Under the pieces are notes generated by a model. That model was not told the DNA's origin. It worked only from the letters and a program-made list of their open reading frames with translations, and ran no database searches. Below, piece after piece: positions 9,696 to 9,980 of a DNA stretch of 24,000 bases; positions within the stretch are counted from its first letter, which is position 1, and each line of letters begins with the position of its first letter. The translations under genes were made by a program, and so were the position numbers. Origin of the DNA: Methanospirillum sp. (GTDB lineage Archaea; Halobacteriota; Methanomicrobia; Methanomicrobiales; Methanospirillaceae); assembly GCA_035561295.1 (NCBI GenBank), contig DATMXW010000029.1, positions 12,669 to 36,668 of the forward strand. The letters are read 5' to 3'.

Positions 9696-9980
9696 ATGAC
9701 AGAAAATAATGAACACTCTGATTCGCCGCAATTGTGCGGTTGCTCAGAAACCTGTAGAATCGAAGCGATTCTAACCATTGATGAACGAGGACAGATGGTC
9801 ATTCCTAAAGAGGTCAGGGAAAATACCGGCATTAAACCGGGGGAAAAACTTGCTCTGACCTCTTGGAGCCGTGATGGAGAGGTCTGTTGCCTGGTTTTAA
9901 TCCGGACCGGACGGCTCTCAGAAATGGTCAAAGATATGCTCAGCCCTCTTGCTGAGTCGATTTTGAAGAGAGAACTATGA
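9696..9980 (+). CDS. AbrB/MazE/SpoVT-type DNA-binding domain protein, Cys-rich, translationally coupled to hgcA
   Basis: 94 aa. The SpoVT/AbrB-like core is IDERGQMVIPKEVRENTGIKPGEKLAL. Five Cys: C14-x-C16-x3-C20 (LCGCSETC) and the pair C64-C65 (GEVCCLV). Its stop TGA (9978-9980) overlaps the hgcA ATG (9977-9979). Confidence 0.8.
   Translation: MTENNEHSDSPQLCGCSETCRIEAILTIDERGQMVIPKEVRENTGIKPGEKLALTSWSRDGEVCCLVLIRTGRLSEMVKDMLSPLAESILKREL

Follow-up and report, generated by a model that had tools for sequence, protein, structure and literature searches.

The stretch of DNA analyzed here, 24,000 nucleotides from a Methanospirillum sp. assembly and referred to as the window throughout, carries a small gene directly in front of the mercury methylation genes hgcA and hgcB. 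This gene, hgcC (9696–9980, + strand), encodes a cysteine-rich protein of 94 amino acids, which is probably an autoregulated, thiol-based repressor of the AbrB type that responds to a metal or metalloid. The proposal was derived from sequence comparison and draws on the fold of the protein, the invariance of its cysteines, the genes which its relatives precede, and the presence and placement of a TCWGA pentamer array upstream of hgcC and of its counterparts in other genomes.

The hgcC-hgcA-hgcB unit and its family

The hgcC open reading frame (ORF) is followed on the same strand by hgcA for the corrinoid protein (9977–11047; NCBIfam NF040863, 420.6 bits) and by hgcB for a ferredoxin of 103 amino acids with two [4Fe-4S] clusters (11044–11355; NF040864, 110.2 bits), which bears a CxC and a CC at its C-terminus. 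The TGA of hgcC (9978–9980) overlaps the ATG of hgcA (9977–9979) in an ATGA at 9977–9980. Likewise, the stop codon of hgcA (11045–11047) overlaps the start of hgcB (11044) in an ATGA at 11044–11047. The 94-aa ORF ahead of hgcA and both overlaps had been described in an earlier reading of the bare sequence (hereafter the first-pass annotation) and were found as described.

The protein encoded by hgcC has the full translation MTENNEHSDSPQLCGCSETCRIEAILTIDERGQMVIPKEVRENTGIKPGEKLALTSWSRDGEVCCLVLIRTGRLSEMVKDMLSPLAESILKREL. It matched the NCBIfam model NF040962.1 (near_HgcAB, "HgcAB-associated protein HgcC") with 111.8 bits over residues 19–86, the cutoff being 70, in addition to the AbrB models TIGR01439 and PF04014. 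This model represents the small HgcAB-associated family which the first-pass annotation had only half remembered, and the window gene also agrees with it in context, as it adjoins hgcAB through the ATGA overlap. An identical protein of 94 amino acids is already deposited at NCBI as "HgcAB-associated protein [Methanospirillum sp.]" and originates from a Methanospirillum metagenome-assembled genome. Since 110 homologues with invariant residues were retrieved and the core of the protein was modeled with predicted local distance difference test (pLDDT) values above 90, hgcC is a real gene and not a chance ORF.

The association of this gene with hgcAB and the idea that it encodes a regulator are already published and represented in NCBIfam, so the novelty first ascribed to both was overestimated. 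A "putative transcriptional regulator" immediately 5' of hgcAB was reported for 112 genomes, and its transcripts were detected (McDaniel et al., 2020, PMC7438021); judged by its position rather than by a comparison of sequences, it very likely belongs to the HgcC family. Another study of 31 confirmed methylators found a gene annotated as prlF, mazE, or abrB directly 5' of hgcA in 8, including 6 archaea, and interpreted it as a regulator of the toxin–antitoxin type, in a text in which cysteines have no occurrence (Zhang et al., 2023, PMC10349881). As searched, neither of the two papers mentions arsM or acr3 contexts or an operator. The literature searched contained nothing that uses the name HgcC together with hgcA, and nothing that ties arsM to an AbrB-type regulator. 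New with respect to this literature are the arsM and acr3 contexts, the three invariant cysteines, and the TCWGA array with its 9-bp phase.

Genes downstream of the family

The gene context of the family was determined for two sets of loci. One genome per GTDB species was scanned, which revealed a relative in at least 591 genomes, and the best 80 loci were kept. An independent search of metagenome contigs, with an alignment of arsM-linked members as query, provided a further 80 loci. In the genome set, hgcA (followed by hgcB) was located directly 3' of the family gene in 56 and arsM in 20 of the 76 evaluable loci, while 4 loci were cut by contig ends. The 56 hgc loci comprise all loci from Methanomicrobia, Methanosarcina, and Methanoperedens, those from Nitrospirota, and one from a Deltaproteobacterium. 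In the metagenome set, 75 loci were evaluable and 5 truncated; here, arsM came next in 68 cases, hgcA in 5, acr3 in 1, and another gene in 1. Overall, the next gene was hgcA in 61, arsM in 88, acr3 in 1, and another gene in 1 of the 151 evaluable loci; in 150 of them, the family gene thus directly precedes an arsenic or mercury gene in the same orientation. The identity of ArsM was supported by NF008823 scores of 345–370 bits (cutoff 263) for all seven proteins tested, and that of Acr3 by 457 bits on TIGR00832. The median gap between the genes amounts to 10 nt for hgcA and 18 nt for arsM, with overlaps in 16 of 55 and 4 of 19 loci, respectively.

The HgcC family is therefore not specific to HgcAB. 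The name of NF040962 implies such specificity, yet arsM- and acr3-linked proteins pass the model as well, and the arsM-linked regulators do so with 117–128 bits, that is, above the window protein. In a neighbor-joining tree, hgc-linked and arsM-linked members interleave; for example, the hgc-linked member from Methanoperedens groups with an arsM-linked one from Chloroflexia. The link to hgcAB postulated in the first-pass annotation was borne out insofar as the gene precedes hgcA in 61 of the 151 loci, but in 88 it precedes arsM and in one acr3, and the description of the family as archaeal or HgcAB-specific is not supported in view of the bacterial members that pass the HgcC model. Because members also precede arsM and acr3 and the two context groups mix in the tree, an obligate third subunit of HgcAB was rejected as the primary interpretation.

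Methanogen hgc operons also incorporate arsenic genes, although the window does not contain any. In about a dozen loci from Methanoregulaceae, a gene of the low-molecular-weight protein tyrosine phosphatase (LMW-PTP)/ArsC type follows directly after hgcB on the same strand (L043, at 7696–8124, and also L014, L031, L056, L057, L068, L076, L078, and L079, among others), and acr3 follows hgcB in several loci; L062, L064, and L040 are among the loci cited for ars genes. At another Methanospirillum locus (L008, 3264–5600), acr3, arsR, and arsC-type genes with the orientation of hgcC are located within the 3 kb 5' of it.

An array of TCWGA pentamers upstream of hgcC

The candidate operator in the window has a core of three pentamers, TCAGA at 9663, TCTGA at 9672, and TCAGA at 9681, with an exact spacing of 9 bp (9663–9685). 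It is situated about 25 nt past a TATA-like box (TTTATTAT, 9631–9638, + strand), which was read from the sequence as a candidate archaeal promoter element, and 10 nt before the ATG of hgcC. No other perfect TCWGA triple is present in the 24 kb of the window. The search of the window for a second operator site yielded only a lone two-unit match in a coding region at 16526, which is consistent with chance. Degenerate units occur in phase with the core (TATGA at 9654, ACAGA at 9699, and TCTGA at 9717); the latter two reach into the first codons of the hgcC ORF.

The array is a general property of the family. The 160 nt upstream of the family gene contain 2.54 TCWGA pentamers per locus compared to 0.27 in control windows, which is an approximately 10-fold enrichment. 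Among about 120 pairs of successive pentamers, 76 are exactly 9 bp and 23 are 18 bp apart. The repeat unit consists of TCWGA and, after it, four A/T-rich bases. When an array was defined as at least three units with at most one mismatch, it was detected at 65 of 78 genome loci (3 of 4457 control windows) and at 65 of 73 metagenome loci (1 of 808 control windows), hence at approximately 86% of all loci compared to 0.08% of the controls (4/5265). Arrays were found at hgcA-, arsM-, and acr3-linked loci, in bacteria as well as in archaea. All that these loci have in common is the regulator gene, whose DNA-binding core, like the array, is nearly invariant. Most simply, the protein binds the array and would thereby regulate its own gene. 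The short gaps to hgcA and the placement of hgcC as first gene behind the array were also counted in favor of an autorepressor. Two arsM genes without a regulator gene were inspected, and neither of these two has an array.

The position of the array relative to the promoter was analyzed separately for bacteria and archaea. A TTGAC[AT] hexamer was present at 22 bacterial loci; at 20 of these, the array begins 2–40 nt and ends 25–56 nt past the hexamer, and therefore covers the spacer, the −10 element, and the start site. Among the archaeal loci with a recognizable TATA box, the box begins 2–4 nt past the array in 28 of 29 cases. The locus of the closest homologue (L162, 78% identity) shows the same order as the window, with a TATA-like box, an array in 9-bp phase, and the ATG.

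Other repeats in this region were considered as well. An imperfect dyad with arms of 17 nt (9652–9668 and 9671–9687, 82% complementary), found in a repeat search, encloses the core of the array, and two copies of the 8-bp palindrome ATGATCAT (9655–9662 and 9685–9692) overlap both ends of the dyad. The second copy, 4 nt before the ATG, resembles an archaeal Shine-Dalgarno sequence (GGTGATC). The palindromes were rejected as operator, because the TCWGA array is conserved at other loci and they are not. A scan of the region 9500–11600 for sigma-70 promoters and intrinsic terminators was uninformative, the host being an archaeon.

Predicted fold

The protein contains the AbrB core motif GQMVIPKEVRENTGIKPGEKLAL and scored 27.5 bits on Pfam PF04014 (cutoff 24.7) and 42.1 bits on the AbrB model TIGR01439 (cutoff 28.3), which confirms the SpoVT/AbrB-type core recognized in the first-pass annotation. 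A monomer model was generated with AlphaFold2 based on an alignment of 68 sequences. Its mean pLDDT is 82, with values below 50 for residues 1–16 and above 90 for the core. According to this model, a disordered tail that bears cysteines (residues 1–19) is followed by a swapped-hairpin core (approximately 20–70) and a C-terminal helix (71–93). Strands 1 and 2 of the model are poorly formed, which is the expectation for a fold that requires a partner chain.

The top 17 matches of the model in a Foldseek search against the PDB all belong to the SpoVT/AbrB superfamily, among them C68 of pSSVx, SpoVT, AbrB-N, Sso7c4, and MazE. The probabilities range from 0.84 to 1.0, and the E-values are only about 0.02–0.5, as is usual for a domain of 50 residues. 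In a profile search of PDB sequences, the N-domain of SpoVT was the best match (E=1e-5); it is the nearest solved structure, none of the HgcC family itself having been found in the PDB. By profile and by model, the predicted fold is the swapped hairpin of SpoVT/AbrB.

This DNA-binding fold is shared by AbrB, Abh, SpoVT, MraZ, Sso7c4, and C68. AbrB reads pairs of TGGNA and MraZ repeats of TGGGN, that is, short pentamers which recur about once per helical turn. The array associated with the HgcC family likewise consists of short pentamers, but these are TCWGA with a period of 9 bp. Compared to SpoVT, an invariant CC replaces I-L in strand 4, and a cysteine-rich N-terminal tail is added. No member of this superfamily is known to be a metal sensor.

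The same fold occurs in antitoxins. PF04014 itself is named MazE_antitoxin, some homologues are labeled "antitoxin PrlF", and weak PrlF matches were obtained for the window protein (Pfam PF15937, 14.2 bits; NCBIfam NF007429, 16.6 bits). Accordingly, hgcC could encode a PrlF/MazE-type antitoxin of a type II toxin–antitoxin module beside hgcAB that co-regulates hgcAB (Zhang et al., 2023, PMC10349881). PrlF and MazE share the PF04014 swapped-hairpin N-terminal domain with HgcC and autoregulate through it, but they have a toxin partner, whereas the HgcC family has invariant cysteines, which are no feature of antitoxins, and an arsenic and mercury context. A toxin gene was found neither as next gene, which in all but one of the 151 evaluable loci was hgcA, arsM, or acr3, nor as upstream neighbor in the window, which is a divergent gene for a tetratricopeptide repeat (TPR) protein (8513–9562). 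Moreover, the two PrlF matches fall far short of the respective cutoffs of 32 and 125 bits. The toxin–antitoxin interpretation was rejected on the basis of these scores and of the gene context in the window and at the related loci, and we regard it as highly improbable.

Conserved cysteines

The translation contains the five cysteines listed in the first-pass annotation, C14, C16, and C20 in a CxCx3C cluster (codons at 9735–9755, + strand) and the vicinal pair C64-C65 in the last β-strand (codons at 9885–9890, + strand), which aligns with I-L of SpoVT. Conservation was evaluated with the 110 homologues retrieved at E≤1e-13, in which D29, R31, G32, Q33, V35, K38, R41, C64, and C65 are invariant. 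The vicinal pair was present in 110 of 110 homologues, at 75 of 75 genome loci, and at all 72 metagenome loci scored. The position of C20, nine residues before D29 and just before strand 1, holds a cysteine in all but one of the 75 genome-locus proteins aligned, whereas C14 and C16 vary between lineages. C20 is hence the conserved member of the N-terminal cluster, and together with C64 and C65 it gives a conserved set of three thiols per chain. Tail patterns among the 110 homologues include CCx8CC, CC, and CCx8C, which occur in many bacteria, and CxCx5C, which is found in Methanomicrobiales. C20, C64, and C65 are essentially invariant whatever the gene context. The expectation that the cysteines might be conserved only in hgc-linked members was wrong, as they are conserved in hgcA, arsM, and acr3 contexts alike.

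The only variant of the vicinal pair, YC instead of CC, was seen in L091 (74–340). This is also the single evaluable locus outside the arsenic and mercury context; small ORFs follow, including one for a small membrane protein. The gene may be decaying or may have been repurposed.

Cysteine-rich termini are also found in the partner proteins. The N-terminal tail of the window HgcA, MTMEPCSCTCTEPTPDAGSSCCQ (9977–10045), has 5 cysteines within its first 22 residues, and the C-terminus of HgcB, ESCDCAGDGDTPSGCCG (11299–11352), ends in SGCCG, so the resemblance of its CC to that of HgcC pointed out in the first-pass annotation is real. In HgcC-linked loci, 38 of 49 full-length HgcA proteins have 3–7 cysteines within the first 45 residues, while six have none. 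ArsM encoded downstream of family members has 4 cysteines within its first 60 residues in 14 of 15 cases. CxC or CC tails are therefore common to HgcA, HgcB, ArsM, and the regulator.

Such thiols would also suit a metallochaperone or accessory partner similar to ArsD, which would capture Hg(II) or As(III) and pass it to the cysteine-rich tails of HgcA, HgcB, or ArsM, with a DNA role being inessential. A vicinal CC and a flexible cysteine-rich tail are in line with this function, the ATGA coupling suggests co-production with HgcA, and the potential recipients have the thiols required, HgcA and ArsM in cysteine-rich termini and HgcB in its terminal CC. ArsD uses its vicinal cysteine pairs in such a way; it has a thioredoxin-like fold, works with the ArsA ATPase, and initially entered the literature as a weak repressor. 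The two proteins are alike in their vicinal cysteines, in a flexible N-terminus, and in the location of their genes inside arsenic operons. Nevertheless, neither sequence nor fold similarity to ArsD was found, the fold of HgcC being that of DNA-binding proteins, and arsA was absent from the recurrent neighbor families of the loci. A pure chaperone would have no need of the conserved, phased DNA motif that accompanies the gene in both bacteria and archaea, and the family also precedes acr3, the gene of a secondary transporter without a known chaperone. Furthermore, autorepressors are typically encoded by the first gene of an operon, behind the operator. A chaperone function is therefore considered unlikely.

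Proposed mechanism

In the mechanism that we favor, a dimer or higher oligomer of HgcC would bind the TCWGA array 5' of its own gene, which is located at 9663–9685 in the window, and the bound repressor would block the initiation of transcription of hgcC-hgcA-hgcB. A soft thiophilic ligand would be held by C20 at the start of strand 1 and by C64/C65 in strand 4, with help from the cysteines of the tail. Arsenite would be the most likely ligand, and Hg(II) or methylarsenite would be possible. Binding of the ligand would free the protein from the DNA and derepress the operon, and translational coupling to hgcA would feed the regulator back. In many bacteria, the family is predicted to act in this way in front of arsM and acr3. 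A thiophilic metal(loid) is proposed as the derepressing signal because the array has a repressor-like position, each chain has three invariant thiols and a cysteine-rich tail, and the context is restricted to arsenic and mercury. Three thiolates per monomer correspond to the arsenite-binding stoichiometry of ArsR-type sensors. Thus, of the two functions considered in the first-pass annotation, that of a thiol-based regulator for the operon is supported by the fold, the three cysteines, and the arrays at approximately 86% of the loci, while that of a third HgcAB component is not.

The proposed role closely resembles that of the ArsR/SmtB proteins, which are also small proteins encoded by the first gene 5' of hgcAB, arsM, or acr3, with predicted derepression by a thiophilic ligand. 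Their cysteine triads are suited to As(III), as the three invariant cysteines of the HgcC family would be, and the CxCx3C of the window protein resembles the CVCDLC site of ArsR from plasmid R773. A precedent is the ArsR-like protein of Pseudodesulfovibrio mercurii ND132, whose gene occupies this place in front of hgcAB and which responds to arsenic (bioRxiv 10.1101/2022.10.17.512643). However, ArsR has a winged helix-turn-helix in place of a swapped-hairpin β-barrel and recognizes a single dyad rather than an array of pentamers in 9-bp phase. No match to the ArsR domain PF01022 was obtained for the window protein at E≤0.1 in the Pfam and NCBIfam searches. HgcC would accordingly appear to be a functional analogue of ArsR and not a homologue.

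Several points speak against a metal(loid)-responsive repressor. A factor other than HgcC could occupy the array, and the ligand was guessed from the gene context, while the window itself is free of ars genes. The CC in a core β-strand could have a structural role, engage in disulfide bonds, or ligate an Fe-S cluster. The arginines of Bacillus subtilis AbrB that contact DNA are R8, R15, R23, and R24, and only the equivalent of R23 (R41) is conserved in the HgcC family; the DNA-binding face must therefore differ from that of AbrB. Finally, the array is located just 5' of the TATA box in most methanogen loci, a position that is also used by archaeal activators.

Some of these points would also fit a DNA-binding regulator of the same kind that receives another signal, through a redox, disulfide, or Fe-S switch or as a sensor of methyl-cycle metabolites such as S-adenosylhomocysteine (SAH), or that acts as an activator, since an array abutting the upstream side of TATA is compatible with activation. 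Cysteine-rich regulators of anaerobes are often redox or Fe-S sensors, and both arsM and hgcA, which account for 149 of the 151 loci, encode methylation enzymes. In Pseudodesulfovibrio mercurii ND132, an ArsR-like protein encoded 5' of hgcAB controls hgcAB and responds to arsenic, but to SAH too (bioRxiv 10.1101/2022.10.17.512643). On the other hand, the context of the HgcC family is specifically arsenic and mercury, including acr3 for efflux and arsC-type genes within the same operons, and the bacterial array covers the −10 element and the start site, which is the position of a repressor. In addition, a vicinal CC is not generally a typical Fe-S motif. A different signal or an activating role thus seems fairly unlikely, and the metal(loid)-responsive repressor remains our preferred interpretation.

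Further features of the window and of related loci

An alternative start of hgcC was noted at an in-frame TTG (L13, 9732), which is preceded by the TATA-like sequence AAAATAAT (9703–9710) and would yield a shorter product that keeps all five cysteines. This start is disfavored, because the N-termini of the closest homologues match the length given by the ATG start and their loci share the layout of an array followed by ATG.

Downstream of hgcB, after 60 nt, the window contains a gene for a TMEM175-like membrane protein with two repeats (11416–12795, + strand), which is possibly part of the same transcript. Further genes encode a CDF cation-efflux protein (4213–5166, − strand), a CHASE4/PAS sensor protein (5255–7015, − strand), and two tandem clostripain-family (C11) peptidases (13836–17755, + strand). 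Neither toxin-like nor ars genes were found among the genes of the window.

In Nitrospirota (L006, L015, L016, L033, L061, L072, L073, and L077), the first tblastn match to HgcA begins approximately 75–400 nt past the end of the match to the regulator, in contrast to the tight coupling in methanogens. The gap in L016 holds an ORF of 101 amino acids. As these gaps between regulator and hgcA contain no second TCWGA array, hgcA may have its own promoter there. At the Methanospirillum locus L008, a second array of three TCWGA units (11994–12016) is located about 5.7 kb past hgcC at the end of the locus and may mark a further member of the regulon.

Implications

How the expression of hgcAB is controlled, and what the native purpose of HgcAB is, are questions in mercury biogeochemistry, where the abundance of hgcAB transcripts is a poor predictor of methylmercury production. 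To date, the ArsR-like protein of a single Desulfovibrionaceae strain is the sole regulator that has been tested. If HgcC is a repressor responsive to arsenic or mercury, it would provide a testable control circuit for methanogens and Nitrospirota, which are major methylators of paddies, peat, and sediments, with defined parts: an operator sequence in which TCWGA recurs at 9-bp intervals, and C20, C64, and C65 as candidate sensor residues. The AbrB-fold scaffold would then join the families of metalloregulators.

The designation HgcC or HgcAB-associated protein is too narrow for the family, as many arsM-linked genes would be mislabeled as markers of mercury methylation. The same regulator and array in front of arsM and acr3 would then give independent support to the proposed link between arsenic and hgcAB. 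It is quite conceivable, though we would not yet presume it, that the family constitutes a structurally new class of arsenite-responsive sensors, namely repressors with AbrB fold that recognize the TCWGA array in 9-bp phase and detect arsenite by means of the three invariant cysteines, which would place hgcAB in methanogens and Nitrospirota under the control of arsenic, not of mercury, as it would arsM and acr3. If so, the native role of HgcAB would be tied to arsenic detoxification across both prokaryotic domains.

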